DNA of 64,000 nucleotides from an uncultured Candidatus Saccharibacteria bacterium (GCA_964390265.1 CAYMHI010000004.1:922-64921), one strand, 5' to 3'. Shown: positions 3,433 to 39,322, numbered from the stretch's first letter. Numbers and translations: made by a program. The notes: generated by a model from the sequence alone, not told the origin.

Positions 3433-3544
3433 TTGCTTGAATCCTTTTTCTAGTATTGATAATAATTTAGATAATTGCTGGCGGGCTTAAGAATCAATAA
3501 ATGATTCTTAAGTACCCTACCAATTTCTCAATTTATACCAAGTT

Positions 3545-4114
3545 CTAGTTTGAAATAGAGCTTGTAGTTGAGAATGTACTTGTGTTACTTACACTTCCTG
3601 AAACGGCAGAACCGCCAGTAGTGTTACCACTAACGTTTGCACTACCACTCGAACCATTTTGGCTGTTTGTGTTAGTCACGCTAACAGTATTAACGTTAGT
3701 TACTACACTGTTGTAAGTGTTGTTGTAGCTAACTTGGTTGTTAGAGTTTGGTCCTGTAACGTTAATGCTTGTGCTGTTAGGAGCCATCGCTGGTCCACTT
3801 ACACCACCTGCATTGCTTACGCTAAACACAGTTGAAGCCATAGCTGCGTTGTTAACACCTCCGCTCATAGCTGATCCACCAGTTGTGTTACCGCTAACGT
3901 TTGCACTACCACTTGTACCGCTTTGGTTGTTGTTATTTACACCAAGTGCAGTATTTGCGTTGGTTTTAACAGATGCCCAAGTGTTGCTTTCAGCAACTTG
4001 GTTGTTTGAGCTAGGCCCAGTTGTACCAATGACCACCGAGCTAGCTGAAACAACTCCTGCTGTTAAGCCTAGAGTAGCTACAGTAACTGCCAATGTTTGT
4101 AATACTTTCTTCAT
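3545..4114 (-). CDS. small secreted Ser/Asn/Thr/Gly-rich repeat protein (two 'TGPxSNNQV...SGSANVSGNTTGGSAxSG' repeats)
   Basis: Signal peptide MKKVLQTLAVTVATLGLTAGVVSAS; AAGGAGG SD upstream; two near-identical internal ~55-aa repeats. Confidence 0.6.
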   Translation of the reverse strand: MKKVLQTLAVTVATLGLTAGVVSASSVVIGTTGPSSNNQVAESNTWASVKTNANTALGVNNNNQSGTSGSANVSGNTTGGSAMSGGVNNAAMASTVFSVSNAGGVSGPAMAPNSTSINVTGPNSNNQVSYNNTYNSVVTNVNTVSVTNTNSQNGSSGSANVSGNTTGGSAVSGSVSNTSTFSTTSSISN

Positions 4115-4329
4115 AATTTTTCACCTCCTTTCAATTTTTTGAGACCTACAGCAATAAAAGCGTCTGTATAATATGCTATTTTGCAATACGATTTTACAGG
4201 CAATCATATTGCGGTAGGTCTCTAGATTTCGGGCTATTGAAACCCGATCATATTAGACTTTCTATAATCTAGTGTGATCGAGCTTCAATAATACCCGATA
4301 GCTTTTATTGACTTGTTAACTTGCGATTT

Positions 4330-4947
4330 TTAGAATTTAACGTATAGTGTACCGGCTTTGTATTTGCTGTAAACATAGGTTGCACCTATTGCGCTTGCAA
4401 AAGCTAAAATGCTAGGAACCCAGCTCCAATTGGTAGTTGATGCTGGTCTTTGACCAATAACACCCGTTCTTGCGTTCATTAAGGCTTTCATTAAGTCGCT
4501 TAGACTTCCACCGCCAGTTTTGGGTAGAGTTGTGACAGATTGACCCAAAGTTGCGACTGAGCCAGCTCCTTCACCACCTGCTCCGGTAATTGCGCTTGGG
4601 TTTTCTGTAACTCCAGCACCCGAGCCACCAACTGCAGGACCGCCGTTGTTTATGCTAACCGCGGTGCTGGTATTGAATGAATTATTTACATTTCCGCTAA
4701 TAGCGTCGCCACCAGTGGTGTTGTCGTTTACATTCGCATTACCACTTGTTCCAGTCTGCACATTGCTAGTTGATACAAATACAGAGTTGGTGTTAGTTTC
4801 GGTCTGAATAAAAGTATTTGTTACTGTACTTATATTTGTGCTTCCAGGGCCAGTATTGGTAATAGTGGTTGTGTCGGCATGCGCTACGCCAGACATGGCC
4901 AAAGGCAGTACCAAGCCGCTTAATAATATTGCTAGTTTATGTTTCAT
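4330..4947 (-). CDS. secreted repeat protein of the same family with an LPKTG-like motif and C-terminal TM plus basic tail
   Basis: Signal peptide ...SGVAHA/D. One TGPGSTN...SGNANVNDNTTGGDAISG repeat. TTLPKTGGGS, then ~30 aa later WVPSILAFASAIGATYVY-SKYK. Confidence 0.55.
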   Translation of the reverse strand: MKHKLAILLSGLVLPLAMSGVAHADTTTITNTGPGSTNISTVTNTFIQTETNTNSVFVSTSNVQTGTSGNANVNDNTTGGDAISGNVNNSFNTSTAVSINNGGPAVGGSGAGVTENPSAITGAGGEGAGSVATLGQSVTTLPKTGGGSLSDLMKALMNARTGVIGQRPASTTNWSWVPSILAFASAIGATYVYSKYKAGTLYVKF

Positions 4948-4956
4948 AATTTCCTC

Positions 4957-5832
4957 CTAAATAATTAATTGTTTTATTTGTATATTTGTTGTTACAAAAA
5001 AGGAGCTTGCAGAATAATATGCAAACTCACTTTTTGTAACAGCAAAAACCATACTCATACTATCTACGTCTGAGCGAGCCGCGTTGCTAAACCCATTCTT
5101 ACGCCAAAACCGCAGAAGCAAACCCATCACAATCAAAGTCAACACTCCAAGCATATGTAGTGCTGCAGATTGTGGCACTCTATCAGCAGAAGAAAATTGT
5201 GCAATTGTGCCCAATGCTGTAATGCTGGCTTCTATAGTTATAAACTGACCGGCCTGAAATACAGCGGCAAACATTCGAAGCACTAGACTAGTACCGTCTA
5301 AAGGTAGATTGTTCGGTACAGGATTAGCACCACTAGAAGCTTGGCTTTGCATAGTATTTGGCAATGCATTGGCACCATCTAAATTGGAGTTGTAAGATGA
5401 AGAGTCTTGATAATATTGCATATAGGCTGGGTAAGAATTGATGTGGTTTGCCTGTGCTGATCGATCAACAGCTTGGTGTGAAGATGGCAAATTGTTACTA
5501 GAACTGTTCTCGGTCACCGACAGCACACCTGCAGTTGTGACAACAGACGAATCATTTGCCTCAACAATGCTGTTGTCTGGCAAATATGACACATTACCAG
5601 CCTGCGTAGATATACTACTAGCGGTAAAAGATTCAATAATAGATTGCTCTGAGGATTGTACAATTGTTTCTGAGCTTTGCTGCGAAACACTGCTCGTCAC
5701 TTGAGTTGATGAGTCGGTGCTATTAACATCATTTTCTGTTTGCGAGGCTGCTAAAGCTTTGCCGCTCAAAGCGAGCAGACAAGCTGAAGCTATTAGCATC
5801 AGAAGCAAAAAACGAGTTGTACGAACTAACAT
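4957..5832 (-). CDS. Ser-rich secreted/membrane-associated low-complexity protein
   Basis: Signal peptide MLVRTTRFLLLMLIASACLLALSGKALAAS; long S/T/Q/N-rich region; hydrophobic segment LHMLGVLTLIVMGLLLRFWRK near the C-terminus. Confidence 0.5.
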   Translation of the reverse strand: MLVRTTRFLLLMLIASACLLALSGKALAASQTENDVNSTDSSTQVTSSVSQQSSETIVQSSEQSIIESFTASSISTQAGNVSYLPDNSIVEANDSSVVTTAGVLSVTENSSSNNLPSSHQAVDRSAQANHINSYPAYMQYYQDSSSYNSNLDGANALPNTMQSQASSGANPVPNNLPLDGTSLVLRMFAAVFQAGQFITIEASITALGTIAQFSSADRVPQSAALHMLGVLTLIVMGLLLRFWRKNGFSNAARSDVDSMSMVFAVTKSEFAYYSASSFFVTTNIQIKQLII

Positions 5833-10965: not shown

Positions 10966-11304
10966 CTACTCAATTTCGGCCTGAATACCACCAAATTTAT
11001 TTGACGCTAGGTTGTATAAGGCAGCAGTTATAAGCCCGCCAATAAGTCCTATCAGTGCGTAAAAACCAACGATTAACGCACCAACTAATAAGCCGCCAAA
11101 CAGTCCTCCAAACAACCCCAGCACAATATTATTGTTACCGGCGCCAGCAGCAATTCCGATAAATAAAATTATCACTGCATACACTACGCCAAGTATAAGC
11201 CCCAACAATCCATATATAGCGGCCAAAATCTTAGCTACACTCATCGGTTCTAAATGTTTTATAGTTACTTTTCTAGCGTTTATTGTACTCATACATTTCA
11301 CCAT
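10966..11304 (-). CDS. small Gly-rich two-TM membrane protein (VirB2/pilin-like candidate)
   Basis: 112 aa; two long hydrophobic Gly/Ala/Leu-rich helices (GLFGGLFGGLLVGALIVGFYALIGLIGGLITAALYNL); last gene of the minus-strand module that starts with the VirB4-like ATPase. Confidence 0.45.
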   Translation of the reverse strand: MVKCMSTINARKVTIKHLEPMSVAKILAAIYGLLGLILGVVYAVIILFIGIAAGAGNNNIVLGLFGGLFGGLLVGALIVGFYALIGLIGGLITAALYNLASNKFGGIQAEIE

Positions 11305-11322
11305 TACCCTTGAGGGTACATA

Positions 11323-11928
11323 CTAAACATCTTCTGGACGATTAAATCTATGATAAATGAACTCAACAAGCATACCTAGTACAGCTCCCACTACTAGAAA
11401 CAGTATGAATGTCATATTCGGAATCACGTAGCCGTAGTAACGCGCACCAATATAGACAATTAATCCAAGGGTTAGCCCCACCACCGAGCCACCAATCAAT
11501 AGAGAAGGACGCATTACTGTCTTACTAGCTACATCGCTAACTTTTTCGACTACCGGATTGTGAACAAACTTTGAAAACGTTCTTGATCGTTTTGGCAATT
11601 GAGCTTGAACTTTCTTAATTTCTTTCTTGTAAACAGCTTTTTTCTCAGCTGCAGTGTAGCTTTCAGGTTTTTTAGCCTCTAGCTCATGCGGTTTGTGCTT
11701 CTCGTGTGACTGTTTGTCTTTATCGGCCTCTGGTTTGAGTTTGAGTTTTTCTTTTTCAGCCTTAAGTACTTTCTCAGCCACGTGGCCCTTGTGCTCTAAC
11801 TCGCTTTTTTTATGGCTTAGCTCAGCTTTATTTGGTTTGGCTTCTTTACGCTTGACTGGCTCAATATCTTTTAGATTGGGCTTTTCAGCACTTGATCCCG
11901 GGTGTTTTTCAATATTTTTTTCAGACAT
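11323..11928 (-). CDS. Lys/Glu-rich protein with C-terminal two-TM anchor
   Basis: Highly charged N-terminal 130 aa (KHKPHELEAKKPESY...), then two TM helices; its start overlaps the stop of the upstream LPXTG gene by 8 nt (translational coupling). Confidence 0.5.
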   Translation of the reverse strand: MSEKNIEKHPGSSAEKPNLKDIEPVKRKEAKPNKAELSHKKSELEHKGHVAEKVLKAEKEKLKLKPEADKDKQSHEKHKPHELEAKKPESYTAAEKKAVYKKEIKKVQAQLPKRSRTFSKFVHNPVVEKVSDVASKTVMRPSLLIGGSVVGLTLGLIVYIGARYYGYVIPNMTFILFLVVGAVLGMLVEFIYHRFNRPEDV

Positions 11929-14266
11929 AAGGGGTTACTCCATCACTTAATGTTTCGACAAGCTCAATTTCTCTTTTTAATAGACGATTTCTAAAGTACA
12001 GATATAGTGAGCTCGCAGCGAAGAATCCAATGAATAGTAGAGGTATAGCTTCTGAGCCAGTCTGAGGCAGCACACCACTCACCATAGTTGTAACAATATT
12101 TGCGCTACACTCAATTCGTTTGGCCGGATTAACATACAATGGAGTCTTTACTAGTTTGCCAAAGAATTCGTCTTGAACCATACAGTCATAATTAGTCGAA
12201 TCGGTAGGCTTATGTGCTATGGTTGGTAGCGGATTTTTTAGAGCTACAGTAAACTCTTTGGATACAAATACCGGGTTGCCATCAACAGGAGAAGGCGGCA
12301 CATCTACAGCTGGCCATATTAATATAGATTGTCCGTCTCGCTGTTCTAATCTAGCTCCACCTGCATCAACCAGGTCGGCATACTCCAGAATGTCAGAAAT
12401 ATTATCCTGAAAAACGAAACCTGTAATTGTAGTGGCGCCGGTATTGCTCATACCTATAGTGTAAGTAAGTTTGTCGCCGCCCCTGGCACGAACATTGTTG
12501 GCATCGGTAGGTTTGCCATCACTAGTAAGGAGGGTAATGTTTCTAACAGTTTTTTGGAATAGCTGGTTTTCAACAGTAATTGTGGCTGTGCAAGTATCGT
12601 TGGAAGATGTTGCATCATTATCGTTAGCCACAACTACAACCGTAGCTGTATAGCGGCCACCGTTATTGTAGGTATGTTGTACAGCCTGCGATAGTTGATT
12701 AGATTGTACGGTCTGCCTATTACCGTCACCAAAGTCAAACCGGTACTCTTTAATAGTAGTATTTTCTGCACTAGATTGTGCCGTCAATGTAGTGATGAGT
12801 GGTGTTGATACCGAACTATTAGGGTTGGCGGTTAGTCTTATGCAACTAAATAACTTGGCGGGTTCTTCACATCTAGGGTCGCCTTGAGGTATACCTGGTC
12901 TACACTCATTAACACCTGTTACAGTAAACGGAGCCCAACAATCTTTAGTGTCTGCAACGGCAACATTATTTTGGTTGTAAACTCTCAATGTAATAAGATA
13001 GTTGCCTGGTTCAGTTCGTCTAAACGAATCGGCATTAAATGATACTGGTGGTTCTCCTACAGGGTCGCGCAGAGTAGTATTAGCATGAACAATCTTGGCC
13101 ACCCCAGGTACAGGTAGGTAGAACTTACCATTCATTTTTATAGTTTGCGCTGTTTCATTTGGAGTCTCTTTGTATAGAGTGTATTCGTATTTGCTTGGTC
13201 TAGGATCAGCACCGGAACCTTCGGTTACTTCAGCTTTGCCGGTCAATACCGGTGTAAATGGTGCCACGCCAGTTGAGCTACCCATTTTAAGGTCTTTACA
13301 TACTAGATCTTTTGGTGCGGCTTTAGGCTGCACCACAATAGTCATCGCACAATTACCGTTGGCGCTACCTGGTGCAATTACTGAAGTTCCACCACTGTTG
13401 TATGAGACCCATAGCCGCACTACAAATGTTCCGGCTTGGTTGAAGGTAAAGTTGCGTACATTAGGGTCTTTAAAATAGCCCGTAGGATTATCGCTAATTC
13501 CATCGGCACGCTTTAGCTCGCCGACCAGCTGACCCAAAGCAGTACCGTCTGGTTTGTAAACACCATAGGCCATATTTACTTTTTCACCAGTAGATACATT
13601 ACTGCCTTTGGCGTAACCTCTATAGCCAACTTCAGCGCCAACTTTTACCGGGCCTGGATTAGTAGCATTTAAATTGTCGCAGATGATTACTTTGGCTGGT
13701 GCTGGTGGGGAGGTAGGTCGTAAAATAATATTGCCACAATCTAGCGCCACACCCCATTCATACCACTGACCAGTAGAAGTATCTTGAATTTTATCTTTGC
13801 CTAATATTACACTCAGACAGCTAGTGTTCCAGCGAGACTCGGCTGGCCCTATATAAATTCCAGGTTGAAACTGAGTAGATCCCCCAAAATTTTCCCTACC
13901 CATCGATAGCCAGCCCTGACCCTTACAGGCCGATCCGGTTGAAGCAGCCTGCATCTTGGCTTGGGTGATCTGCAAACGATTAAATACCTGTTGAATACCA
14001 CCTGGATTTTGGTTCCATACTTTGCTAATTAGAGATGATTTGGTAAATGGCCCGCCCGAGATTAGATCGTTGGCTGAAGATGCATAGCTTGGTTTTGGGG
14101 GAGCTACAAAGGTAATAAACTGAAACAGCAACATACCAATCATTAATACTGCAGCTAGTCGCCTGGTGGCCGTTTCTTTAGATAGTCGTTTAGCATAAAA
14201 CAAAACCTTACTTTTCGATAATGCTCCTGTCGAAAAGCCCGTTACTACATCTCTAAAGTTTTTCAT
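11921..14266 (-). CDS. LPXTG-anchored cell-wall surface protein (sortase substrate)
   Basis: N-terminal signal anchor. Canonical C-terminal sorting signal LPQTGSEAIPLLFIGFFAASSLYLYF-RNRLLKR. Large beta-rich extracellular region with Cys pairs. Confidence 0.7.
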   Translation of the reverse strand: MKNFRDVVTGFSTGALSKSKVLFYAKRLSKETATRRLAAVLMIGMLLFQFITFVAPPKPSYASSANDLISGGPFTKSSLISKVWNQNPGGIQQVFNRLQITQAKMQAASTGSACKGQGWLSMGRENFGGSTQFQPGIYIGPAESRWNTSCLSVILGKDKIQDTSTGQWYEWGVALDCGNIILRPTSPPAPAKVIICDNLNATNPGPVKVGAEVGYRGYAKGSNVSTGEKVNMAYGVYKPDGTALGQLVGELKRADGISDNPTGYFKDPNVRNFTFNQAGTFVVRLWVSYNSGGTSVIAPGSANGNCAMTIVVQPKAAPKDLVCKDLKMGSSTGVAPFTPVLTGKAEVTEGSGADPRPSKYEYTLYKETPNETAQTIKMNGKFYLPVPGVAKIVHANTTLRDPVGEPPVSFNADSFRRTEPGNYLITLRVYNQNNVAVADTKDCWAPFTVTGVNECRPGIPQGDPRCEEPAKLFSCIRLTANPNSSVSTPLITTLTAQSSAENTTIKEYRFDFGDGNRQTVQSNQLSQAVQHTYNNGGRYTATVVVVANDNDATSSNDTCTATITVENQLFQKTVRNITLLTSDGKPTDANNVRARGGDKLTYTIGMSNTGATTITGFVFQDNISDILEYADLVDAGGARLEQRDGQSILIWPAVDVPPSPVDGNPVFVSKEFTVALKNPLPTIAHKPTDSTNYDCMVQDEFFGKLVKTPLYVNPAKRIECSANIVTTMVSGVLPQTGSEAIPLLFIGFFAASSLYLYFRNRLLKREIELVETLSDGVTPYV

Positions 14267-14372
14267 TTTTGTATTCCCCGCCTTAGCTTATATTATGTTA
14301 TTTAACTGCATTATAATATAAAGTGAAGCATAAGCGCAAGCATTTGTTGTTACTTTATTTTTAATACAGTAT

Positions 14373-16874
14373 TTAGCCCACTCGGGAAGGTTGTGGCTCA
14401 GTAGATGTGGCACTTTTTGAGCTACTAATAGCATCGAGGCTGGCTGCTACTTCAGCTTCCACCTCAGCTTTTGGTCGGCTATACTTGCTTCGCGACAGAT
14501 CACGCATAGCAGTTTGAAGCTCAGTATTAATAATTTCTTTATCTACCGGAGGGTAACCACGCATAGAAAATGGAGTTACTGGCTTACCATTAGCAATTAT
14601 TTTGGCGACCGCATAATGATTGGGTATATTGGCAATATCACTAGCGCTAAACTGTGGTTCAAATTGCTTGGCAAGGTACTCGGCATCATCGTTACCGACT
14701 CTATGAATTATCATACTACCTACGTTTCCAAACACGGCGTCGCGTATTTGCTCATCAATTTGCTCAATGTATTGATTAGCCACGGTCAAATTAAAGTGGT
14801 ATTTTCTAGCCTCAGACAATATAGTTGCAAAACTGTCAGTAGCAATATTTTGAAACTCATCTACATATAACCCAAAATCAACACGTTCATGCTCTGGTAT
14901 GTCAGCCCTACTCATAGCTGCTACCTGCAGCTTAATAACAAATATCATGCCTAATAACTTGGCATTCAATTCACCCATAAGGCCTTTACTAAGGTTTACT
15001 ATTAATATTTTATTGTTGTCCATAATGTCGCGAAAGTTGAGAGCCGATTTCTTTTGGCCAATAATATTTCGAAGCATTTCGTTATTGGCTACTGCACCAA
15101 ATTTTGAAGCAAAATAACCCAACATATCAGACTTAGTGCGCGCATCGGTTTGGGCCATTTCGTTTGTCCAAAAAGCTTGTACGGTTGGGTCGGTCAGATA
15201 CTTAAATTTTTTCTTCAGATATTCATCGTCGGTAAATACCCTAGGAACCTCAATATATGAGCCACCCTCAGGATCAGCCATAACCGTCAAAGCGGCATTT
15301 CTAAACCAGTTTTCAAACTGCGGCCCTATCATGCCCTGATGCTGAGGGTCGTATAGCTTATAAAGCATGCTTATTATTTCTTGTACTATAAAGTCTTTTT
15401 GTTCAGGCTTATTGTGATCGTACTCCATAATATTGAGACCCATTGGGTATTCGGTATCGCCAGGTGAAAAATAGATAACGTCTTCAGCACGATTGGCCGG
15501 AATACGACCTAGCAGTCGCTCGGCTTCATCTCCGTTAGGATCAATAAAACAGAAGCCTCGGCCTTCTTTGGCGTCTTGAATCATCAAGTTAGTAAGCAAT
15601 ACAGACTTACCAGTACCAGTTTGTCCAATTATATATATGTGTCTGCGCTTATCATCTTTGGTCAAATATATTGGCGTTTCGTGACCGCCAAAAATATTTA
15701 GGCCAATTCGCATGCCTTCGGTCGGTAAACCAGCTGGGGCAGCCACTTCCTTGGCGGCTTTTCTTTCGATATTAACTGCCGAGCCTACTACTTCGCTTGG
15801 CAAGTGGAATATTGTGGCTAGCTCAACCGAATTCAAAACCAAATCATTCTGGCTGGCCGGGAAAAATCTAAATATAAAATCAGTAGCAACTTTTTGGGGT
15901 TCTTTAGCACTTTTGTATTTAAAACTATTAGCGCCACCTTGACTTAGCTGTGCAAATCCCAAATTAATATCTTGAATAATTACTTTTGACCTTATAGGAT
16001 CATCAGAGCTGGCAATTATTCTTATGCAAGTCTCAAAAGCTGGCGATTTGGCTTTTTGCTCAATCAACTCCGATTTTTTCTGGTCAATTGCATCTGGTTG
16101 TTTGTCGGGTTTGTTCTTGTTGTCAACATCGTCTTTTCTTTTAAAAGGAGCTTTAGCTACATAGCCGGCAAACTCCATTGCCTTACCGGCACCACTATCG
16201 TCTTTTTTATTAGGATCAAGCACCTGTTTAGCTCGCTTTATAGCTTGTTTGGCCCAGTCAGAGCCAGCCGGCCGTATCATTAACTGAATGGCCGCACCTT
16301 CGTGATCTTCAAGATTAGACAGCCCTGCTAACATTCCAGACAAAGCATCACTATCACTATCGCGGTAAGTGTTGATAGGTAAGTAACTCTCCTTGGCTAG
16401 TTGAAGCTCACCACCCTGTACCCCAGCGATTTTACTGGCTTTTGAGAATATATTAATATCTTCGGCTTTTTCTATTTGAATGCCCGTATAGGCCGATGTT
16501 AGCGATTTTTGCACCGCACTCAGTAGCGTTGCCGGCACAGCTATGTAGAAATTAATTTGTTTACCATCAGCGACTATCTCAAAACTAACATATTTTTTAC
16601 CATAAAATTTAGACTTGTCGGTCGCAATTCCCGAGAGCAGATTAAATACGCCCTCCGCTTTAGAAATGTTCTCTTTAATGAGCTCACGGGTATCTCTAGA
16701 CCCATCTTCGGCTTCCTGTGGCGGTAGCTTAACCAGAAGTGGTACCATTTTTAATGATCTTTCTATATCTTTACTACGCCGAGCAACACGTCGATACCAA
16801 AAAAACCCGATGGCACTTATCAGCGCCACAAAGGCCAACATTATTATCAACATAAACATTACAAACTGCGACAT
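14373..16874 (-). CDS. VirB4/TraC-family (AAA_10-like) secretion or conjugation ATPase with N-terminal TM segment
   Basis: 833 aa; N-terminal TM; mid-protein Walker A YIIGQTGTGKS; Walker B LYVDEF; EARKYHFNLTVANQ motif typical of the VirB4/VirD4/TraG clade. The Walker A position (~aa 418 of 833) favours VirB4 over VirD4. Confidence 0.55.
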   Translation of the reverse strand: MSQFVMFMLIIMLAFVALISAIGFFWYRRVARRSKDIERSLKMVPLLVKLPPQEAEDGSRDTRELIKENISKAEGVFNLLSGIATDKSKFYGKKYVSFEIVADGKQINFYIAVPATLLSAVQKSLTSAYTGIQIEKAEDINIFSKASKIAGVQGGELQLAKESYLPINTYRDSDSDALSGMLAGLSNLEDHEGAAIQLMIRPAGSDWAKQAIKRAKQVLDPNKKDDSGAGKAMEFAGYVAKAPFKRKDDVDNKNKPDKQPDAIDQKKSELIEQKAKSPAFETCIRIIASSDDPIRSKVIIQDINLGFAQLSQGGANSFKYKSAKEPQKVATDFIFRFFPASQNDLVLNSVELATIFHLPSEVVGSAVNIERKAAKEVAAPAGLPTEGMRIGLNIFGGHETPIYLTKDDKRRHIYIIGQTGTGKSVLLTNLMIQDAKEGRGFCFIDPNGDEAERLLGRIPANRAEDVIYFSPGDTEYPMGLNIMEYDHNKPEQKDFIVQEIISMLYKLYDPQHQGMIGPQFENWFRNAALTVMADPEGGSYIEVPRVFTDDEYLKKKFKYLTDPTVQAFWTNEMAQTDARTKSDMLGYFASKFGAVANNEMLRNIIGQKKSALNFRDIMDNNKILIVNLSKGLMGELNAKLLGMIFVIKLQVAAMSRADIPEHERVDFGLYVDEFQNIATDSFATILSEARKYHFNLTVANQYIEQIDEQIRDAVFGNVGSMIIHRVGNDDAEYLAKQFEPQFSASDIANIPNHYAVAKIIANGKPVTPFSMRGYPPVDKEIINTELQTAMRDLSRSKYSRPKAEVEAEVAASLDAISSSKSATSTEPQPSRVG

Positions 16875-16882
16875 ACTATCAC

Positions 16883-17338
16883 CTAATTAACATCTAAATT
16901 AAATCGTTTTTTTATATATACTCGGCTCATTTCGTGTTGATGCTCATCCTCTAGTGCTGGGTCGTCCTTATCTTGCTCTATCACATCTTCAGTCTTTTTT
17001 ACCCAAGACTTCTCAATCAAATCGACATCTTCGGCTGGTAACGACTCTAGCGTTTTTGCAAACATATCTCTAGCCGACTTGGCATCGGTGTGAACACTAC
17101 TGGCTTGTGTTGGAGCTGATTGAGAGAGGGTGGTCGAATTAGTCGCAGGTTGATTCGGTATTGGGTTTGGCGAAGTAGTTGCTTGAGGTGCAATTTCGGG
17201 ACGTGGAAGGTTAGGTTGTTGCTCGGTGGTATTTGCTACAGACTCATTAACTTGAGCTACCCCAGGACTAGGCTCAGCCACTGGTGACGCAGCCGGATAA
17301 AATGCATTATTTGGGTTGTGCACGTTAGGAGTATTCAT
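16883..17338 (-). CDS. Pro/Thr/Asn/Gln-rich low-complexity protein
   Basis: 151 aa, no TM; acidic C-terminal part; sits between the L,D-transpeptidase and the VirB4-like ATPase. Confidence 0.4.
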   Translation of the reverse strand: MNTPNVHNPNNAFYPAASPVAEPSPGVAQVNESVANTTEQQPNLPRPEIAPQATTSPNPIPNQPATNSTTLSQSAPTQASSVHTDAKSARDMFAKTLESLPAEDVDLIEKSWVKKTEDVIEQDKDDPALEDEHQHEMSRVYIKKRFNLDVN

Positions 17339-17371: not shown

Positions 17372-18850
17372 CTAGCTGTGAATCCAAACTGGGGTACCAA
17401 TATTAACCCAACCGAATAAGAAAGCAGCCGAGCTTTTGGGCATATTAACACAACCATGACTTCCGCCATTAATATAGTCTTGGCCTCCAAAGCTAGATCG
17501 CCAATCAGCATCATGAAACCCTGCGCCCCCATTAAAGGGCATCCAATAATCGACAAACACGTTGTAACTCCATCCATACTGACTGCCATTTAGATAGCGA
17601 CTTCTTTGTTTAGAATAGATAGAGAATAGTCCTGTTTGAGTACCAAACCCATAGCCAGATGCTCCGCTTGTTACCGGAGTAGAGAAGATTACTTGATTGT
17701 CTTGATAAGCCCACAGGCGTTGTTGGCTCAAATTTACCTCTATATAAGTACCATAATCTATACCAGCTGTACGATTGGTTTCGGTTTTATAGGCCACCGG
17801 ACTGGCTGAAAGATTTACCGAGATATCTTTATTGTCTCTCAGGCCATTTACGATCGCGTCTATAGCTACCTGCTGGTTAATTGATCGGCCGTCTTTTCCT
17901 TCTTGTTCTACCGAAGATACGCCATTTCTAATATTGATCTTTTTATTAGTTGGCGCAATATTAATTTGGTTGGCAACACTCTGTACATAGCCAGATACCT
18001 GTTCTGGCGAAACACTAGCTTGCAAATGTAATTTACCATCACTACCAACAACCTCGCTAAAAACTATCATATGACCTATGGCGTTACTATCGGCGACATA
18101 TTTTTTACCTTCAAACTCCATAGATACCGATCTGGATAGTATTGTCTCAGCTTGGGTTTTTGCATCATTGGTGTCTGCAGCTAATATTTCAGCCTTCACG
18201 GTTTGGGGTTCTAAATATAAGTTCTGATCCTTTGCATCTTGCAAAGAAGTAGCGATTATTCTAGTCAAATATTTTTGATCTACTCTTAATCCGTCTTTAT
18301 CGGGGACAATTTGCACTATCCCGTTTTCAACCTTCAGTGTGGCATTTTGAGCCTTATAGCCTACCGATCCAATAATTGAATCGGTAAAACTTTTTAGCTT
18401 AACCAAGTCTACATCGTAAGCATAACCTATCTGACCCCTCTCGCCAATTGCTATTGTATTTAATAAAGCCAACGACTTACCGTGGCCCACCTGGTAGGCA
18501 GTATCGACAGTAGTTGGTATATCATAGCTAGCACCTAACTCATCGCTAGTAACAGTAAATACTTTTTCACCCACCTTAACAGTAAAAGTGCGTTGAAGCT
18601 TTTGACTATTTAAGTAATCAAGGGTTTCTTTTCTAGACAAAAAACTAACGTCATTGCCGGCTATCGACACTCCGGGCGCCATACGGCCCATAGTGGTGGC
18701 TGAAATAAATAGCTCTATAAAACAAAATATTAGTATCAAACTTATTATTAGAAAGTTTATTCTTGCAGTTTTGCTCGGCTTCATACCAGATTGAGACATA
18801 AATCTAGGTAAATGCAGCCAGTGCTTGTGCGGTTCGGTTTTATTTTTCAT
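17372..18850 (-). CDS. membrane-anchored L,D-transpeptidase (YkuD domain)
   Basis: N-terminal TM; C-terminal YkuD catalytic motif ...GGSHGCVNMPKSSAAFLFGWVNIGTPVWIHS (His/Cys active site). Confidence 0.7.
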   Translation of the reverse strand: MKNKTEPHKHWLHLPRFMSQSGMKPSKTARINFLIISLILIFCFIELFISATTMGRMAPGVSIAGNDVSFLSRKETLDYLNSQKLQRTFTVKVGEKVFTVTSDELGASYDIPTTVDTAYQVGHGKSLALLNTIAIGERGQIGYAYDVDLVKLKSFTDSIIGSVGYKAQNATLKVENGIVQIVPDKDGLRVDQKYLTRIIATSLQDAKDQNLYLEPQTVKAEILAADTNDAKTQAETILSRSVSMEFEGKKYVADSNAIGHMIVFSEVVGSDGKLHLQASVSPEQVSGYVQSVANQINIAPTNKKINIRNGVSSVEQEGKDGRSINQQVAIDAIVNGLRDNKDISVNLSASPVAYKTETNRTAGIDYGTYIEVNLSQQRLWAYQDNQVIFSTPVTSGASGYGFGTQTGLFSIYSKQRSRYLNGSQYGWSYNVFVDYWMPFNGGAGFHDADWRSSFGGQDYINGGSHGCVNMPKSSAAFLFGWVNIGTPVWIHS

Positions 18851-18907: not shown

Positions 18908-21727
18908 TTAGCATAGTTTGATATTCTTCATTTTTTGATGTTTCTTTAACTCGCTAACTATATTTTCTATGCGGTTATTTATTTGTTTGCCTTGGGGATT
19001 TGGACCAAAATCAAGCCACACTCTAAAACTTAATCGTTTTTTAGATTGACCACTCAACACGTCATTGGCAAACTCACTAACAAACTCCAAGCGCTTCAAT
19101 ACATCTGAGGTAGGTAAATTATCTAATAGGTCTTGCCACCATACATCGCTGGCTATCTCAATAGTAATATCTCTTTGAACTAGTTGGTAAGGCAGTGTTG
19201 GTTTAGACTTTGTAGTAGGATTGGTTAGCAAATCTGAGCTCAAGTCTACTTCGGCAAAACTAACTTTTTTACTAATTTTGTGTTCTACTAACATTTCAGG
19301 AGTAATTTGCCCAATTAAACCAACCTCTTTTTTGTCTACACAAATAGTAGCCGACCTGCCGTCTACAAAATTTTTGTTATTATTTGGCGCTATACGCATA
19401 TTCCATCCATATTTTGAGTGTAATATATAAACTAAGTTTTTGAGTAATTCTATTCCATCGCTACCAACCGTCGTAATTGCCAACTTCCACCGCTCCTGCT
19501 TACCATTCTTTTTAGTGGAAGACTTAATATAGCTTCGTGAAACTTCAAAAAACCCATACACATCTTGCCAATAGCTATTGTTGTTGGCTACAGTTTGAAT
19601 GTGGCTCATTAGCAAACTGCTACGCAAATACTCCTGTTCGATACTTAGTGGGTTCACTATTTTTAAGTTAGCACCAACTTCTGCACTCGCAGTTTGTAAG
19701 CTATTTTTGTTAACAAACGAATAAGTCATTACTTCAAACAGACCCCTACCTGCTAAAAGTTTTTTTAGCTCCATTACGCTTGGTACAAACGTATGCTCGC
19801 TGGTATCGGTCGGAGGGAGCTGGGGGAGAGTAGCCGACATATTCTCATAGCCAACTATTTTGGCCGACTCTTCGTATAGATCTTGCTCTATTCGAACATC
19901 GTCTCGCCACCACGGTGCGGTAACTGCAATAATATGATTAAAGTTATCTACATAGCGCCTTGCTCCCAAGTACCCATAATTTTGAGTAAATTCACTTAGA
20001 TCCACCTCTATCACCCCTTGCTTGCGTCTTTTTACCCACTTTTTATTACGATATTCATACTTGGCCGCCATCACCACTTTGCCCTGACCAATATAAATTC
20101 CGTTGTGTCCAACTTCTTTTTTTTGATCTAGCTTTTTCTTAATGTGGTTACCGCTATCGTCTTTTAGGTAGTAGTGATCATCTACCGAGCGCTCTATTTT
20201 GCCTTTATAAAATACTACATCGCCGGGTTTTAGGTTGCCAACCTCCACGGCCTTACCATGATTATATTGCGCCAAAGCAGTATGGCCTATATACACTCCT
20301 ATAAGCGAGTAGATATAATCTATAAGATAGGAACAGTCAAAAGCATTTGTACCATCTTGCTTATAATTAGCACCCCATTTGTATGGTTTGTCAAGATGTT
20401 TTCTGGCCTCTTTAGTAACTGAGAAATGCTCGGCTTTAAAGCCTCGCTGTTTTAGCCCCTCTATTATCTGTTTTTCGTCTAATTTTACCCCCAAAAAAGC
20501 CTCCGCTTTACGAACTCTCAAACCAATATGTTGAATCCAGGGCCAAGCATAGAGTTGATCGAATGGACCATCAATTACCTCGGCCTGGCATATAGTCTTG
20601 AACAAATAGAGGAGACGCTCGGCCGCATAAATTGGAAGGGGGAGAGGTAAGCCTTTTTCAAACCGAGCACTAGCTTCGGTACGAATACCGTGCCTAGTAG
20701 CGGTGCGGCGTATTCTAGAGCCATCAAAATTAGCTACCTCCAATACGATTTCTTTAGTGTTTTTGTCTACTTCGGTAGATTTGCCACCCATTACTCCAGC
20801 CAAACCTATTACACCACTGCTATCAGCTATCACCAAATCGTTACTACCAACTTTTCGGTCTGTATCGTCTAGGGTAGTAAGAGTTTCGCCATTCTTGGCA
20901 AATCTAACCTGCAGACTGCCTTTTAGCTTTGCGCTATCGTAAGCATGTGATGGTTGGCCAGTTTCTAGCATTACAAAGTTGGTTATATCTACAATAGGAT
21001 TAATTGGCCTCATCCCAGCAGCTTTTAAGTTTTCCACAAGCCAGTCTGGCGATTTTCCTTTTTGGCTAATTTTTAACTTTGCACTAACAAATCGCTTACA
21101 CTCTCCTGTTTCTTTTATTTTTGCAATCTCTGAGCTTTCGAAGTTGGCCTCATCGCGACTAGGTTGTACCAAAGAATTATTTGATGAGTTAGCACAAACT
21201 TCGCGGGCCAAACCCAAGATTGAGAGCAAATCGGGCCTATTGGCGGGCGTCTTAATATTCACAATATCGCCCAAATTATCTATGTCGCACAATGATATTC
21301 CAAGGGGGAGGTCAGGGTCGAGAACAGCAATACCAGAGTGATCATCTCCTCTCCCCAGCTCTCTTTCAGAGCAGAGCATACCAGCCGATTTCTCACCCCG
21401 CAACACTGCCGTTGCTATTCTGTCCCCGCTAGGTAGCACCGTACCCGGTTTGGCATAGGCTACTATCATACCTTCTCGCAAGTTTGGTGCACCACATACT
21501 ACCTTAGCTTTGGTTTTATTGTAGCTAACTTCTGCCAACCTAAGTCTATCAGCATTGGGGTGTTGCCAAACTTTCAAAACCTTGGCTGTAACTATGTGTT
21601 TATCCAGGCTGGTTGAGCGCGCTACGTCCTCCACTTCTACCTCAGTGCGTTCAAATGCCGCCACAATATCATCAGTTTTGAGCTTTTTTTTCAAATATAA
21701 GTTTATAAAGTTTACTGGAACCAACAT
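18908..21727 (-). CDS. pheT: phenylalanine--tRNA ligase beta subunit carrying an inserted NlpC/P60-like domain
   Basis: tRNA-binding, B3/4 and B5 domains and ...VTAPWWRDDVRIEQDLYEE... core are collinear with PheT. A ~165-aa insert has YKWGANYKQDGTNAFDCSYLIDYIY...GHTALAQY...LKPGDVVFY...HNGIYIGQGKVV. Start set at the MLVPVNF Met, 4 nt after the pheS stop (the ORF track extends 22 codons further). Confidence 0.88.
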   Translation of the reverse strand: MLVPVNFINLYLKKKLKTDDIVAAFERTEVEVEDVARSTSLDKHIVTAKVLKVWQHPNADRLRLAEVSYNKTKAKVVCGAPNLREGMIVAYAKPGTVLPSGDRIATAVLRGEKSAGMLCSERELGRGDDHSGIAVLDPDLPLGISLCDIDNLGDIVNIKTPANRPDLLSILGLAREVCANSSNNSLVQPSRDEANFESSEIAKIKETGECKRFVSAKLKISQKGKSPDWLVENLKAAGMRPINPIVDITNFVMLETGQPSHAYDSAKLKGSLQVRFAKNGETLTTLDDTDRKVGSNDLVIADSSGVIGLAGVMGGKSTEVDKNTKEIVLEVANFDGSRIRRTATRHGIRTEASARFEKGLPLPLPIYAAERLLYLFKTICQAEVIDGPFDQLYAWPWIQHIGLRVRKAEAFLGVKLDEKQIIEGLKQRGFKAEHFSVTKEARKHLDKPYKWGANYKQDGTNAFDCSYLIDYIYSLIGVYIGHTALAQYNHGKAVEVGNLKPGDVVFYKGKIERSVDDHYYLKDDSGNHIKKKLDQKKEVGHNGIYIGQGKVVMAAKYEYRNKKWVKRRKQGVIEVDLSEFTQNYGYLGARRYVDNFNHIIAVTAPWWRDDVRIEQDLYEESAKIVGYENMSATLPQLPPTDTSEHTFVPSVMELKKLLAGRGLFEVMTYSFVNKNSLQTASAEVGANLKIVNPLSIEQEYLRSSLLMSHIQTVANNNSYWQDVYGFFEVSRSYIKSSTKKNGKQERWKLAITTVGSDGIELLKNLVYILHSKYGWNMRIAPNNNKNFVDGRSATICVDKKEVGLIGQITPEMLVEHKISKKVSFAEVDLSSDLLTNPTTKSKPTLPYQLVQRDITIEIASDVWWQDLLDNLPTSDVLKRLEFVSEFANDVLSGQSKKRLSFRVWLDFGPNPQGKQINNRIENIVSELKKHQKMKNIKLC

Positions 21728-21731
21728 GTTT

Positions 21732-22724
21732 TTAAAACTGCTCCAAAAAGTTAAATTGGGGTCGCCACAGTTCTCGAAGATCATTGAGTCCATATTTTAT
21801 TACTGCAAAGCGCTCAGCGCCCCAACCGAATGCAAAACCAGAATACTTGTCGGCATCAATACCGCCATTTTTTAATACTCGAGGGTGCACCATGCCTGCT
21901 CCGCCTAGCTCTAACCACTTGCCATTGTAGCGACAATCTAGCTCCACTGAGGGCTCTGTATATGGAAAGTAGCTGGCTCGAAATCTAATATCAACATCCG
22001 GGCCTAATAAACTCCTTACTACTCTCAATAATGTACCTTTCAAGTCAGACATAGCCACCCCCTCTCCTACTACTAGCCCCTCTACTTGGTTGAATATCCA
22101 TGCGTGAGTAGCGTCTTCGTCTTCATTTCTAAATACTCTACCAGGTACAATTATTTTAAATGGTGGCTTGTTTTTCTCCATAAATCGAACCTGCATACCA
22201 GATGTATGAGATCTAGGTAAAAGGTTCATTTTGCCGTTATCGATATAAAAAGTGTCCTGCATATCCCTAGCCGGGTGCGACGCAGGCATATTCAACGCTT
22301 CAAAATTATACCAATCAGTCTCAATTTCTGGACTATCAACAATTGCAAAACCTAGCTCGGTAAATACTTGGTAGGTCTGCTCTAGAACCATACTTGTAGG
22401 ATGTATATGACCATAGTCCTGGCCAAAAGCATTGGTAGTTGCACTTAAGTCTAGCGGCTTAAATTTTGATGAAGTCAAAACTCTCACTTTTGCAGAATTA
22501 TAAAGTTCCTCTAATGCACTTCGCACATCGTTAAGCCGCTTTCCGTTCAATGCCCTATCTTTTTGCGACATGTTCTTAAGCTCTTTTAGGTCCATTACGA
22601 TGTGGCTTTTACCAGATAAATATGTAGCCTTAGCCGCATCTAACTGCTGTTTATTTTTTGCATTAAAAAACTGGCTTTGGGCTTGTTTTAAATAATTTGA
22701 TGATAAAGATGGTAATTTATTCAT
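21732..22724 (-). CDS. pheS: phenylalanine--tRNA ligase alpha subunit
   Basis: Class II motifs: FRNEDEDATHAWIFNQVEG, FPYTEPSVELD, GWGAERFA. Confidence 0.93.
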   Translation of the reverse strand: MNKLPSLSSNYLKQAQSQFFNAKNKQQLDAAKATYLSGKSHIVMDLKELKNMSQKDRALNGKRLNDVRSALEELYNSAKVRVLTSSKFKPLDLSATTNAFGQDYGHIHPTSMVLEQTYQVFTELGFAIVDSPEIETDWYNFEALNMPASHPARDMQDTFYIDNGKMNLLPRSHTSGMQVRFMEKNKPPFKIIVPGRVFRNEDEDATHAWIFNQVEGLVVGEGVAMSDLKGTLLRVVRSLLGPDVDIRFRASYFPYTEPSVELDCRYNGKWLELGGAGMVHPRVLKNGGIDADKYSGFAFGWGAERFAVIKYGLNDLRELWRPQFNFLEQF

Positions 22725-22728: not shown

Positions 22729-23118
22729 TTAGTTAGTTTTTCTGGTTCTAAAATATAATTCTATTAGTAATACAGTAAGCGCAAAAAGTATAATATCTCT
22801 AAAACTTAAACTTTTAAGGGTAGATAGAGCTATAAGCAAGGTGGCTGTGAAGCCTAGTAAGAACCCTGTTCTTACAGATCCTAATAGAATCTTTCTGGGC
22901 TCATTTCTTTTTTCTTCACTGCGCAGCTTCCATAAATAATCTATTAAGGTGATTAAACTAGTTAAGCCTATTAGAATACCTATAAACCAAAAAGTTATTA
23001 ATGCCGGACCCAACTCTTTTGGTGTGAAGCCAAATACTATATATAGCACAAAGGTTAACGATGCCAAAAGAAGCACCGATAAAACCGAAATACTTATAAT
23101 AATTGTTTTGCCTCTCAT
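22729..23118 (-). CDS. small 4-TM membrane protein
   Basis: 129 aa, four hydrophobic helices; stop lies 4 nt before the pheS start (same operon). Confidence 0.5.
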   Translation of the reverse strand: MRGKTIIISISVLSVLLLASLTFVLYIVFGFTPKELGPALITFWFIGILIGLTSLITLIDYLWKLRSEEKRNEPRKILLGSVRTGFLLGFTATLLIALSTLKSLSFRDIILFALTVLLIELYFRTRKTN

Positions 23119-37548: not shown

Positions 37549-38346
37549 TTAGCTCGGCTGTTCTGCCAACTGCCTTTTGTGCTGCGCAATAACCTCGGTG
37601 TGAGCCTCGAGGATTTCTAGCTCTTTTACAACTTCGCTATACGGCATATTGCTACAGCTAGCATCAGAGCTCCGCTTTGGGGTTGGCATAGATATGGGCG
37701 AGAATACCACCAAGCCACCTGAGAACTTACAGCTCACCCCTAGAGCCTGCTTCAAAGCATTGAGCTTGGGTAGAGCATCGGAGTCAAGTGACTGGTTGAT
37801 CCAGTCTGGTACCCAATAGTGGTCTTCGGCGATTATCATTTGGGGGTGAGTAACCCAAAACCCTTCACGTTTAAGAGTTACCCTCAAGCCCCCGGGTTCA
37901 ATCCCCTGGTGGGCATAGATATCTTCTATTTCAGCCAAGCGAGCATCGTACGCATCAACAAACTCTCTATACGATTTCACTTGACCAACTCTAACCAGCT
38001 TGCACAGATTACATCGAATATCACTATTTTGGCTAAGTACGACCATCAGCTTTTTCCACGGGTTGTGAATATTACAGGTATAGGTTATTTGGTTTTTACC
38101 ACAGCCCACACAAGGGCCCAATAGCGTTACTCTGCCATCGAAAGCATTTTTGCGCTTAGGTGCGGACGCGCCGCTACTATAGCCCCTCACCTTGTAGCCG
38201 TTTATCTCAATCCCTTGCAGCCACAATCCTCTTTTGGCGGCCTCATCGAGAGTCAGCTGCACTTCACCAAAAAAATCATATTGCTGTTCTGATGGTGCAG
38301 GCATGCTTGCTCTTCTACCTTGATCGGCTCCAAACACTCTTCGCAT
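37549..38346 (-). CDS. Cys4 zinc-ribbon protein, paralog 1 (unknown function)
   Basis: FDFFG...TLD N-terminus; CVGCGK...RCNLCK zinc ribbon; C-terminal W-rich region homologous to the 38444..39265 gene. Start taken at ATG 38346 (a TTG 6 nt upstream is also possible). Confidence 0.55.
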   Translation of the reverse strand: MRRVFGADQGRRASMPAPSEQQYDFFGEVQLTLDEAAKRGLWLQGIEINGYKVRGYSSGASAPKRKNAFDGRVTLLGPCVGCGKNQITYTCNIHNPWKKLMVVLSQNSDIRCNLCKLVRVGQVKSYREFVDAYDARLAEIEDIYAHQGIEPGGLRVTLKREGFWVTHPQMIIAEDHYWVPDWINQSLDSDALPKLNALKQALGVSCKFSGGLVVFSPISMPTPKRSSDASCSNMPYSEVVKELEILEAHTEVIAQHKRQLAEQPS

Positions 38347-38352
38347 AGTCAA

Positions 38353-38440
38353 CTTATCTCTCCTTGGTAGGTACTAGGCAGTATTGTACAGTATATAAAT
38401 AAAATCCCCAAGAGTTTCTTGGGGTATTGGACGAGATAAT
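38353..38440 (-). promoter_or_regulatory. terminator-promoter-leader cassette, copy 2
   Basis: ~50 nt almost identical to 37464..37545 (TATTGTACAGTATATAAATAAAA-CCCCAAGA...TCTTGGGGTAT); hairpin 38405..38424; contains the GUACCUACCAAGGAG leader. Confidence 0.5.
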
Positions 38441-38443
38441 TAT

Positions 38444-39265
38444 TTACGGCTTGCTTCTCGACACTTGATGAGCCTGCTGAATAGCTTGGTGGGCTTGGTA
38501 CTTTTGGAGTAGATCCTGAGCCCGTTCGAGATCAATAAAGCCTCGGATAAAAAACAGATTATCCCACGTGGGGATTTGGCAGTATATCAAAAATCCTTCC
38601 TCAACCCTTAACTCCACCCCAAGCTCATTTGCAAAAGCTTGGTGTTGCTGCAGAGCTTGAGCGCTACCGGTTTGATCGATCCAGTTCGGGAACCAACCTG
38701 GCCAGCTACTATTGGTTAGGATACAGATGCCAGGGTGTTTTACTACACGCTTATCGAATGTAGGCTCAGCCTGGCCTTGACCGACGAAAGCCTGCACAAT
38801 TGCAGCCCTGCGTACCTGGCAGGCATCAACGTAATCTGCAAGCTTCCCAACGGTGCTAGACGTAACATTATTACACATCTCGCAACGAAAGCTGGAGTCG
38901 TTACGCCTATCACGCTCAATAATACTTGCAGGTTGGTTGATGTGATAGTTTTTTTTCACCCGACTGTGTCCGCAGTACCAACAGTCAGCTTCAACGACTA
39001 CCCTGCCTTCAAATGGACGTAGTCGCCATAAATCGGGAATGTGTTGATTACTACCCGAACCAACTCCAGCACGTACAAGATACTCACCAATTTCTAGCCC
39101 GCTGCCATATAGATATTTTTTGGTTTGATCGTCTAGCGTGACGCTGGCAATACCAAAAAAATCAAAAACCGTTTGTTCTGGCAGCTCGACAACAGCAATA
39201 TCGCTTGTAGCTTTTCCTCCTGGCGTTGATGTTTCATCTGATTTGTTTCTGCCCCTAAATGCCAC
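38444..39265 (-). CDS. Cys4 zinc-ribbon protein, paralog 2 (unknown function)
   Basis: FDFFG...TLDD; CWYCGH...RCEMCN; homologous C-terminal region. Start reassigned to GTG 39265, 10 nt after AAGGAGG; the ORF-track ATG at 39310 lies upstream of the conserved leader and SD. Confidence 0.55.
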   Translation of the reverse strand: MAFRGRNKSDETSTPGGKATSDIAVVELPEQTVFDFFGIASVTLDDQTKKYLYGSGLEIGEYLVRAGVGSGSNQHIPDLWRLRPFEGRVVVEADCWYCGHSRVKKNYHINQPASIIERDRRNDSSFRCEMCNNVTSSTVGKLADYVDACQVRRAAIVQAFVGQGQAEPTFDKRVVKHPGICILTNSSWPGWFPNWIDQTGSAQALQQHQAFANELGVELRVEEGFLIYCQIPTWDNLFFIRGFIDLERAQDLLQKYQAHQAIQQAHQVSRSKP

Positions 39266-39322
39266 TAGCAACCTTCCTCCTTGGTAGGTACACCTGAGCG
39301 ACTTGCCCATAAATCATTGGCT

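Follow-up and report, generated by a model that had tools for sequence, protein, structure and literature searches.

A membrane-anchored VirB4/VirD4-class ATPase beside gyrBA in Saccharibacteria, its conserved small partners, and the separate surface genes next to it

Patescibacteria (the candidate phyla radiation, CPR) may account for a large part of bacterial diversity, and they live in attachment to other microbes. To our knowledge, their type IV secretion system (T4SS) is the first reported to be essential for its own carrier bacterium. The known patescibacterial T4SS is a cluster apart that has a VirB4 and a pilin array of its own. Of 3035 genomes surveyed, 2417 (80%) encode VirB4 and 2918 (96%) together hold 5713 homologues of VirD4 type, about two per genome; PrgB-like adhesins were not detected in the phylum (Quinonero-Coronel et al. 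2025, PMC12102498). In the cultured Southlakia epibionticum ML1 the T4SS cluster SEML1_0006-0019 is essential, and was described by its authors as having no recognisable coupling protein (Wang et al. 2023, PMC10633639). The locus considered here lies in a 64,000-nt stretch of an uncultured Candidatus Saccharibacteria chromosome (CAYMHI010000004.1:922-64921), hereafter the window, and its centrepiece is an 833-aa ATPase predicted to combine a VirB4-like architecture with a motor whose sequence resembles that of type IV coupling proteins (T4CPs).

An original prediction, made from the window's sequence, had grouped this ATPase gene with four neighbours as a single T4SS/adhesin module. The region is instead three juxtaposed things: a core of p151 and the ATPase, to which the distant p129 belongs, a unit formed by an LPXTG protein and p201, and p112. 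The genes, with their transmembrane (TM) segments where present, are as follows.

16883-17338, minus strand: p151, open reading frame (ORF)
14373-16874, minus strand: 833-aa membrane-anchored ATPase (TM helix, DUF8128 and VirB4/VirD4-class motor)
11921-14266, minus strand: LPXTG protein, 781 aa
11323-11928, minus strand: p201, Lys/Glu-rich, with two C-terminal TM segments
10966-11304, minus strand: p112, Gly-rich small membrane protein
22729-23118, minus strand: p129, small membrane protein with four TM segments
17372-18850: flanking L,D-transpeptidase (YkuD and PG_binding_4, by Pfam)

The five co-oriented ORFs at 10966-17338 lie exactly where they had been placed, between the L,D-transpeptidase and pheT/pheS genes on one side and gyrB/gyrA on the other, and their close spacing is likewise real: 8 nt separate p151 from the ATPase gene, the LPXTG gene and p201 overlap by 8 nt, and a gap of 18 nt precedes p112. 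Since each has homologues under purifying selection, all five are taken to be genuine genes.

The ATPase carries every motif originally assigned to it, namely an N-terminal TM segment, GQTGTGKS, ARKY and ANQ, and divides into the following elements.

16800-16868, minus strand: N-terminal TM anchor, residues ~3-25 (hydropathy, and a long N-terminal helix in the AlphaFold2 model)
15690-16766, minus strand: DUF8128 (Pfam PF26449), residues 37-395, with a predicted fold like that of the VirB4 N-terminal domain
14445-15689, minus strand: P-loop motor domain, residues 396-810
15603-15626, minus strand: Walker A, GQTGTGKS, residues 417-424
14847-14870, minus strand: Walker B with its DE pair, LYVDEFQN, residues 669-676

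A basic stretch, WYRRVARRSK, directly follows the TM helix, and by the positive-inside rule the protein beyond it would be cytoplasmic. The PF26449 label comes precomputed with 119 of the 120 homologues listed, including those 87-98% identical, and reaches the window protein by way of these homologues. The DUF8128 family counts 1270 representatives at 50% clustering, its domain always beginning just past the TM helix, and it finds no mention in the searchable literature. In the predicted structure the protein follows the two-domain plan of VirB4, a VirB4-type N-terminal domain joined to a RecA-like C-terminal ATPase domain, the latter interrupted by an all-helical insert at residues ~491-605. 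As modelled, it thus unites VirB4-like architecture with a coupling-protein-like motor sequence.

Sequence models tell of the motor's other affinity. They place it in the HerA/FtsK superfamily, nearest to the T4CPs: the best NCBIfam matches are SXT TraD (7e-14), TOL TraD (1e-9) and the CD1115 VirD4-like model (4e-7), all of them well short of their curated cutoffs, and in Pfam DUF87 slightly exceeds its cutoff and the TraG-D_C sub-domain model passes at 22.4 against 22. In bits, the T4CP models TIGR03743 and TIGR03754 reach 51 against 366 and 37 against 648, and PF10412 (TrwB_AAD_bind) 19.1 against 20.5. The VirB4 models fare worse: TIGR00929 (VirB4_CagE) gives 19.4 bits where 643.1 are required, on the Walker A region alone (residues 411-437), and PF03135 (CagE_TrbE_VirB) gives no match in Pfam. 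A profile of 35 family members retrieved TrwB (9e-8) and DotL (8e-6), then HerA, as its top hits in the PDB, and no VirB4 chain at E<=10. Among 72,556 plasmids, tblastn with the motor domain matched 296 records at 27-36% identity; the names carried by the matches listed were 'T4SS DNA-binding domain', 'TraM recognition domain', 'T4SS conjugative DNA transfer family', DUF87 and ATP-binding, never VirB4. The records are mostly non-mobilizable, and the two best examined hold orphan genes; the nearest plasmid relatives (Sulfitobacter, Rhodococcus) have the motor domain alone in common with the window protein and are orphans outside T4SS clusters. Among solved and annotated proteins, the motor sequence would therefore stand nearest to T4CPs. 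The original assignment to a VirB4/TraC family survives as regards a T4SS-type ATPase with VirB4-like architecture, and gives way at the level of sequence (TIGR00929, 19 against 643 bits), where coupling proteins are closer.

Homologues at E<=1e-3 number 2863 among the candidates scored, nearly all of them in Patescibacteria, and between Saccharibacteria and the lineages of Microgenomates type and Parcubacteria type the identity of the ATPase is still ~40%. None of 35 phylum-spanning sequences departs from the Walker A, Walker B and Arg residues, and the motor is predicted to be a catalytically intact P-loop ATPase of the VirB4/VirD4 class. Some CPR loci outside the Saccharibacteria hold two full-length DUF8128 paralogues, either in tandem or separated by a few kb; their identity with the window protein is 33-35%.

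L040, 1128-6163: two DUF8128 ATPases
L053, 9938-18566: two DUF8128 ATPases
L066, 9944-17281: two DUF8128 ATPases

Most Saccharibacteria orthologues (L004-L037) are 900-1100 aa long and reach 1568 aa with Pro-rich tails, a C-terminal extension missing from the 833-aa window protein.

Gene order was compared across 80 species-level loci carrying ATPase relatives. A gene of the p151 family stands immediately 5' of the ATPase gene in 33 Saccharibacteria loci, and p151 is a probable partner of the ATPase. It is soluble and, as first noted, Pro-rich (11% Pro); its N-terminal half is of low complexity, rich in Pro, Ala, Asn and Thr, its acidic, helical C-terminal ~55 aa are conserved, and it matches no Pfam or NCBIfam family. 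Phylum-wide, a small soluble ORF on the same strand directly precedes the ATPase gene in ~63 of 74 loci. Alignment of the p151 family by hhalign with the Parcubacteria-type upstream ORFs gave E 0.025 and a probability of 2%, with a common 'DDPY...' motif, and homology is not established; with the Microgenomates-type ORFs it gave nothing. Across CPR classes, as far as these alignments reach, it is the position of the small upstream ORF alone that appears to be conserved. A further protein of ~120 aa with 3-4 TM segments lies upstream of p151 in 26 loci, and a hidden Markov model (HMM) of these 26 neighbours has a sole match in the window, p129 (E 1e-11, full length), whose family occurs in 29 of the 80 loci and which matches no consistent Pfam family, PrgI, VirB3 and TrbC included. 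In the clade of the window (the window and L001-L003) pheS, pheT and the L,D-transpeptidase gene sit between p129 and p151, and further arrangements that have pheST on the upstream side exist. By this homology p129 appears to be a displaced third partner, the counterpart of the protein directly upstream of p151 and the ATPase in most Saccharibacteria; the conserved partners are p151 and p129, and the gene set as first drawn had left the latter outside its boundaries. gyrB and gyrA follow the ATPase gene in 29 loci, and the neighbouring genes examined across the 80 loci include none recognisable as being of VirB3/PrgI, VirB6 or VirB8 type or as a relaxase.

Cell-wall enzymes recur beside the DUF8128 ATPase in different CPR classes, no single one being conserved across classes.

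L045, 12323-13390: D-Ala-D-Ala ligase (Ddl)
L048, 12361-13758: ATP-grasp protein
L051, 14150-15904: SpoIID
Window, 17372-18850: L,D-transpeptidase

Genetic information comes from transposon sequencing (Tn-seq) and annotation of S. epibionticum ML1 (PMC10633639), where the same gene order is found, followed by gyrB, gyrA and a divergent PAP2 gene. The published calls for P0/P1/P2 (ES, essential; NE, non-essential; GD as in the source) are listed with the window gene that occupies the corresponding position.

SEML1_0140, 117 aa, TM protein: NE/GD/GD; syntenic with p129
SEML1_0141, 139 aa, hypothetical protein: GD/ES/ES, 0 insertions; syntenic with p151
SEML1_0142, 1019 aa, 'TraM recognition domain', a core and Patescibacteria-enriched family: ES/ES/ES; syntenic with the ATPase
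SEML1_0143, 193 aa, minus strand: NE; syntenic with p201
SEML1_0144, 535 aa, DUF11, minus strand: NE; syntenic with the LPXTG protein

From synteny and annotation we infer that the window genes are orthologous to SEML1_0140-0144. By this correspondence with the published Tn-seq, the genes that stand for p151 and the ATPase in S. epibionticum are essential, and the unit of LPXTG protein and p201 is dispensable in culture. The paralogue SEML1_0293 ('T4SS DNA-binding domain') is NE (PMC10633639). The VirB4-like N-domain, the p151 and p129 partners and the split in essentiality between SEML1_0142 and SEML1_0293 are not described in the searchable literature. SEML1_0142 tolerates few transposon insertions, 11 of 114, which may fall in the C-terminal extension.

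On balance these data tip slightly towards a membrane-anchored ring ATPase of the VirB4/VirD4 class that energises or gates transport for a patescibacterial T4SS encoded elsewhere, with p151 as adaptor or regulator. The protein would be held in the membrane by its one N-terminal helix, the remainder facing the cytoplasm, and would form a membrane-associated ring like its relatives, using ATP to drive or gate transport at the cytoplasmic membrane. Its most likely role would be that of the missing coupling ATPase, or a second energising ATPase, of the patescibacterial T4SS encoded near dnaA. By analogy with CagZ and Cagbeta, p151 may be its small adaptor or regulator.

Several observations weigh against this assignment to a T4SS. 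The link is indirect, T4SS, sortase, pilus, relaxase and integrase genes being undetected in Pfam and NCBIfam scans of 44 ORFs of the 64-kb window, along with VirB3, VirB6 and VirB8 homologues. The ATPase scores below the curated cutoffs of every T4CP and VirB4 equivalog model, and the DUF8128 family profile gave nothing significant against F-plasmid TraC or TraD with hmmsearch and hhalign; because a sequence-level signal to F TraC is lacking, the proposed homology of DUF8128 to the VirB4 N-domain is an argument from predicted structure. Orthology with SEML1_0142 is likewise drawn from synteny and annotation, and the proposed role of p151 from analogy. Among the 5713 VirD4-type homologues, which probably include the DUF8128 ATPases, just 148 lie near virB4 (PMC12102498), and some genomes must have T4CP homologues and no VirB4, since 2918 genomes contain the former and 2417 the latter. 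Finally, the T4CP homologue of ML1 has been called non-essential and perhaps exapted (PMC12102498); the protein meant is probably SEML1_0293 rather than SEML1_0142.

Some of the same facts invite the main alternative, possible though less probable, in which p151, the ATPase and perhaps p129 are independent of any T4SS and constitute a stand-alone essential motor for translocation or remodelling, in envelope or peptidoglycan biogenesis, protein export or the handling of DNA at the membrane, built on an exapted VirB4/VirD4-type ATPase. T4CP-type homologues reach 96% of patescibacterial genomes against 80% for VirB4 and almost never adjoin virB4, and the closest relatives outside the CPR are orphan ATPases outside T4SS clusters, mostly on non-mobilizable plasmids. 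Cell-wall enzymes often neighbour the ATPase gene (the L,D-transpeptidase here, Ddl in L045, SpoIID in L051), but these associations are heterogeneous and not conserved across classes. SEML1_0142 is ES already at T0, as are gyrB and primase, and most T4SS genes are GD at that point; dnaA and dnaN are likewise GD at T0, however, so that the difference in timing does not discriminate. As far as we know, all well-characterised proteins with a VirB4-type N-domain act within a T4SS, which counts against a motor working alone. Replacement of FtsK was considered and rejected: S. epibionticum has a canonical FtsK of its own, which is essential, and the ATPase is therefore no simple substitute for it.

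A bolder version of the T4SS-linked reading, which can be offered only tentatively, sees in the DUF8128 ATPases a third branch, of ancient origin, in the VirB4/VirD4 radiation. One of their patescibacterial paralogues, with p151 and p129, would then supply an essential ATPase, either the missing coupling one or a second energiser, to the non-conjugative T4SS that these CPR epibionts need. If true, the family would be a living intermediate showing how coupling proteins arose from VirB4-like ancestors, and the substrate-recruiting component of the CPR T4SS would have been identified.

Much lower stands the idea with which the locus was originally approached, that the five genes form a minimal Gram-positive-type T4SS or attachment apparatus in which a VirB4 ATPase and an LPXTG adhesin are joined by small membrane subunits and a pilin like VirB2, an idea now very unlikely. 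The genes are indeed co-oriented and tightly spaced, here and in close relatives, the ATPase is VirB4-like in architecture, and the LPXTG protein has adhesin-type domains. Its features, and the spacer that parts it from the ATPase gene, are these.

14267-14372, minus strand: 106-nt spacer between the ATPase and LPXTG genes, with a TTGCGC-18-TATAAT-like element and an AAGG ribosome-binding site, a candidate separate promoter
12581-12829, minus strand: PKD domain (Pfam PKD_4, 7e-14)
12371-12502, minus strand: CLIPPER/DUF11 domain (Pfam DUF11, 3.5e-4)
12056-12070, minus strand: LPQTG, residues 733-737, followed by a TM segment (740-758) and RNR

The order along the protein is a long conserved leader with a TM segment, a conserved N-domain, PKD, CLIPPER/DUF11 (a stalk domain in fibrillar adhesins; PMC12617251), LPQTG, a TM segment and a 25-aa tail, with RNR after the TM segment. 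The C-terminal layout is that of sortase substrates, an LPXTG motif, a hydrophobic segment and basic residues, and the TIGR01167 anchor model scores 16.1 bits, barely above its cutoff of 15.9, in agreement with the wall-anchored protein of 781 aa first proposed; the LPxTG form is retained in most homologues. A sortase was not found in the 64-kb window, and S. epibionticum has two (SEML1_0327 and SEML1_0711). A weak match to the CPR pilus protein PamR (E 0.004) is due to the PKD domain, and the Pam operon has a different context. Before the first hydrophobic segment the family shares the leader 'MFRKL.SNL.FSP.L..Q..FYAKRLRKEE..RR', and past the basic residues it has a conserved cytoplasmic tail of ~20-25 aa, R-x-x-L-x-x-E-[LIV]-x-[LIV]-[IV]-[RK]... 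(11921-12055 of the window, minus strand; homologues L002-L037), unlike a canonical sortase substrate, which is expected to stop at the basic residues. The accompanying p201 is the charged protein with two TM segments that had been described, its cytoplasmic N-terminal region being rich in Lys and Glu (26% and 16% over the first 115 residues), and it has no family match in Pfam or NCBIfam.

Comparison of loci separates this pair from the ATPase. The p201 family occurs in 24 loci and adjoins a homologue of the LPXTG protein in nearly all, the LPXTG gene always coming first; in 22 of the 24 the pair lies on the opposite strand and converges on the ATPase gene. Same-strand pairs are confined to L002 and L003 among the 80 loci and recur in the close relatives L084 and L085. 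In 12 loci the pair is absent and the ATPase gene abuts gyrB, and the pair's counterparts are non-essential where that of the ATPase is essential. The TTGCGC-18-TATAAT-like element that precedes the LPXTG gene also speaks for separation, albeit as a pattern match spotted by eye: a consensus promoter scan does not list it, and promoter-like sites in the region are no commoner than chance. By synteny and domain content, the LPXTG protein and p201 appear to be an independent two-gene surface unit, in which a fibrillar-adhesin-like protein with a sortase-type sorting signal would have p201 as its membrane partner. The peptidoglycan-remodelling enzyme that had been counted in adjoins the pair in the window's clade only.

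The last of the five, p112 (16% Gly, residues 20-96 forming a hydrophobic stretch), had been likened to VirB2/TrbC pilins and was also considered as a displaced four-TM partner of the ATPase. Neither identity holds: p112 and its 12 homologues give no pilin match (PF04956, PF18895) at E<=0.1, and the HMM for the partner matches p129 instead. The window protein scores 14 bits against PF12089 (DUF3566), below the cutoff of 22.2, with residues 12-109 aligned to positions 5-114 of the 118-position profile; 10 of the 13 proteins, counting p112 and its homologues, match PF12089 (best E 3.2e-6), three of which have the label precomputed. No homologue occurs at any of the 80 ATPase loci, p112 is not found beside any VirB4, and a 57%-identical homologue is flanked by unrelated genes, one for a Kelch/Peptidase_S74 protein and one for a malic enzyme. 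On this evidence p112 would be a DUF3566-family membrane protein, a lineage-specific neighbour outside both units. Actinobacterial DUF3566 proteins adjoin gyrA (Rv0007), a possible lead. The five-gene module thus fails because it joins an essential, phylum-wide ATPase unit (p151, the ATPase and p129, their ancestral neighbour) to a dispensable and usually convergent surface pair and an unrelated gene, probably of the DUF3566 family; in addition, VirB3, VirB6 and VirB8 homologues are wanting in the window, and the known patescibacterial T4SS, with its VirB4 and pilin array, is another cluster.

That a conjugative or mobilizable element once integrated here and left the locus as its remnant, with the ATPase a decaying coupling protein, is hardly credible: the motor does resemble T4CP-like plasmid proteins (27-36% identity), but base composition is not anomalous, the window has no relaxase, integrase or repeats, the housekeeping context beside gyrBA is constant across Saccharibacteria, identity stays at ~40% phylum-wide with invariant catalytic residues, the syntenic counterpart is essential, and neither a patchy distribution of the kind left by horizontal gene transfer nor signs of decay are seen. 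The original view of a chromosomal, host-dedicated and non-mobile locus is thereby upheld, in keeping with conservation of the ATPase across Patescibacteria. The GC content of the region, 0.40-0.46, is unexceptional for the window, and the closest homologues are from Candidatus Saccharibacteria and other patescibacterial metagenome-assembled genomes, the chromosome being of Saccharibacteria type. The rest of the window is housekeeping, with aminoacyl-tRNA synthetase genes, a UvrD/PD-(D/E)XK helicase, tmRNA, RNase P and glycosyltransferases, and a divergent PAP2 gene lies at 282-1142, as ML1 also has PAP2 after gyrB and gyrA. The tmRNA (41790-42179, minus strand; tag ANTLMRNLVNAVRTPSFAPAYA) and the class A bacterial RNase P RNA (59608-59998, minus strand) fit a core chromosomal region.

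Other observations were made elsewhere in the window. PheT (961 aa; 18908-21793, minus strand) has an NlpC/P60 domain (PF00877, E 2.4e-12, 47 bits against a cutoff of 23) inserted in its B5 region at residues ~469-554, with Cys ('FDCSYL') and His ('GHNGIYIG') motifs that look intact, an odd occurrence of a domain of cell-wall-hydrolase type within a cytoplasmic aminoacyl-tRNA synthetase. L002 and L003 keep the insert at 56-58% identity, in L001 it is weaker, L084 and L090 also carry it, and the 779-aa PheT of L089 lacks it. Downstream of gyrA (1234-5832, minus strand) four consecutive genes encode secreted Ser/Thr/Asn-rich proteins of 291, 205, 189 and 732 aa with signal peptides and repeats of the form 'NTGPxSxN...NVSGNTTGG(D/S)A(I/M)SG', one with an internal LPKTG and a C-terminal TM segment ~40 aa later; none matches a Pfam or NCBIfam family, the CPR Pam pilus models included. 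Two adjacent paralogous ORFs of 267 and 288 aa (37549-39310, minus strand), with a common N-terminal 'FDFFG...TLD...GLEI.(G/E)Y.VR' and no family matches, lie in the window's most GC-rich stretch (0.47-0.49 against ~0.41) and may be foreign DNA.

The ATPase is a phylum-wide protein, essential at the syntenic locus of a cultured relative, that for now goes under a DUF label or the unspecific name 'T4SS DNA-binding domain protein'. What is new is a predicted structure that unites VirB4 and coupling-protein features, together with two conserved partners previously unremarked. It offers a concrete, genetically tractable candidate for energising or loading the CPR T4SS; should it act alone, a T4SS-type motor would have been recruited to a housekeeping job. 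A tempting mis-annotation is also corrected: the adhesin and the small membrane proteins encoded beside the ATPase do not belong to a T4SS.

Set against known systems, p112 aligns with DUF3566 (PF12089) proteins over the full length of the profile, the window's own copy lying under the cutoff. The LPXTG protein shares with fibrillar LPXTG adhesins of Gram-positive bacteria a leader, a PKD and CLIPPER/DUF11 stalk and a C-terminal LPXTG motif with TM segment and basic residues, and differs in its conserved ~20-aa extension, its long leader (FYAKRL...) and its constant pairing with p201; it shows no sign, such as would recall PrgB-like adhesins, of being tied to a T4SS. The ATPase is set apart from HerA, FtsK and DptH by having no HAS-barrel, no FtsK alpha/gamma domains and no four-TM FtsK anchor, and from VirB4/TrwK/TraC by its own N-terminal TM helix, its failure against VirB4 sequence models, its motor nearer to that of coupling proteins and the position of its gene, which is not beside VirB3, VirB6, VirB8 or VirB2. 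In Patescibacteria it moreover coexists with a separate, canonical VirB4 of MPF-FATA type (PMC12102498). With the T4CPs (VirD4, TrwB, TraD, DotL, Cagbeta) it has in common an N-terminal membrane anchor and a detectably similar motor sequence, and the small adjacent partner gene p151 is reminiscent of Cagbeta and CagZ; it differs in having one TM helix rather than the usual two, in being unlinked to a relaxase or T4SS cluster in the window and the related loci examined, and in the ~350-aa VirB4-like domain (DUF8128) between anchor and motor, which no characterised T4CP possesses. The S. epibionticum T4SS (SEML1_0006-0019) resembles it in phylum, in its chromosomal, non-conjugative setting and in the essentiality seen for SEML1_0142, whereas the ATPase is encoded far from virB4.

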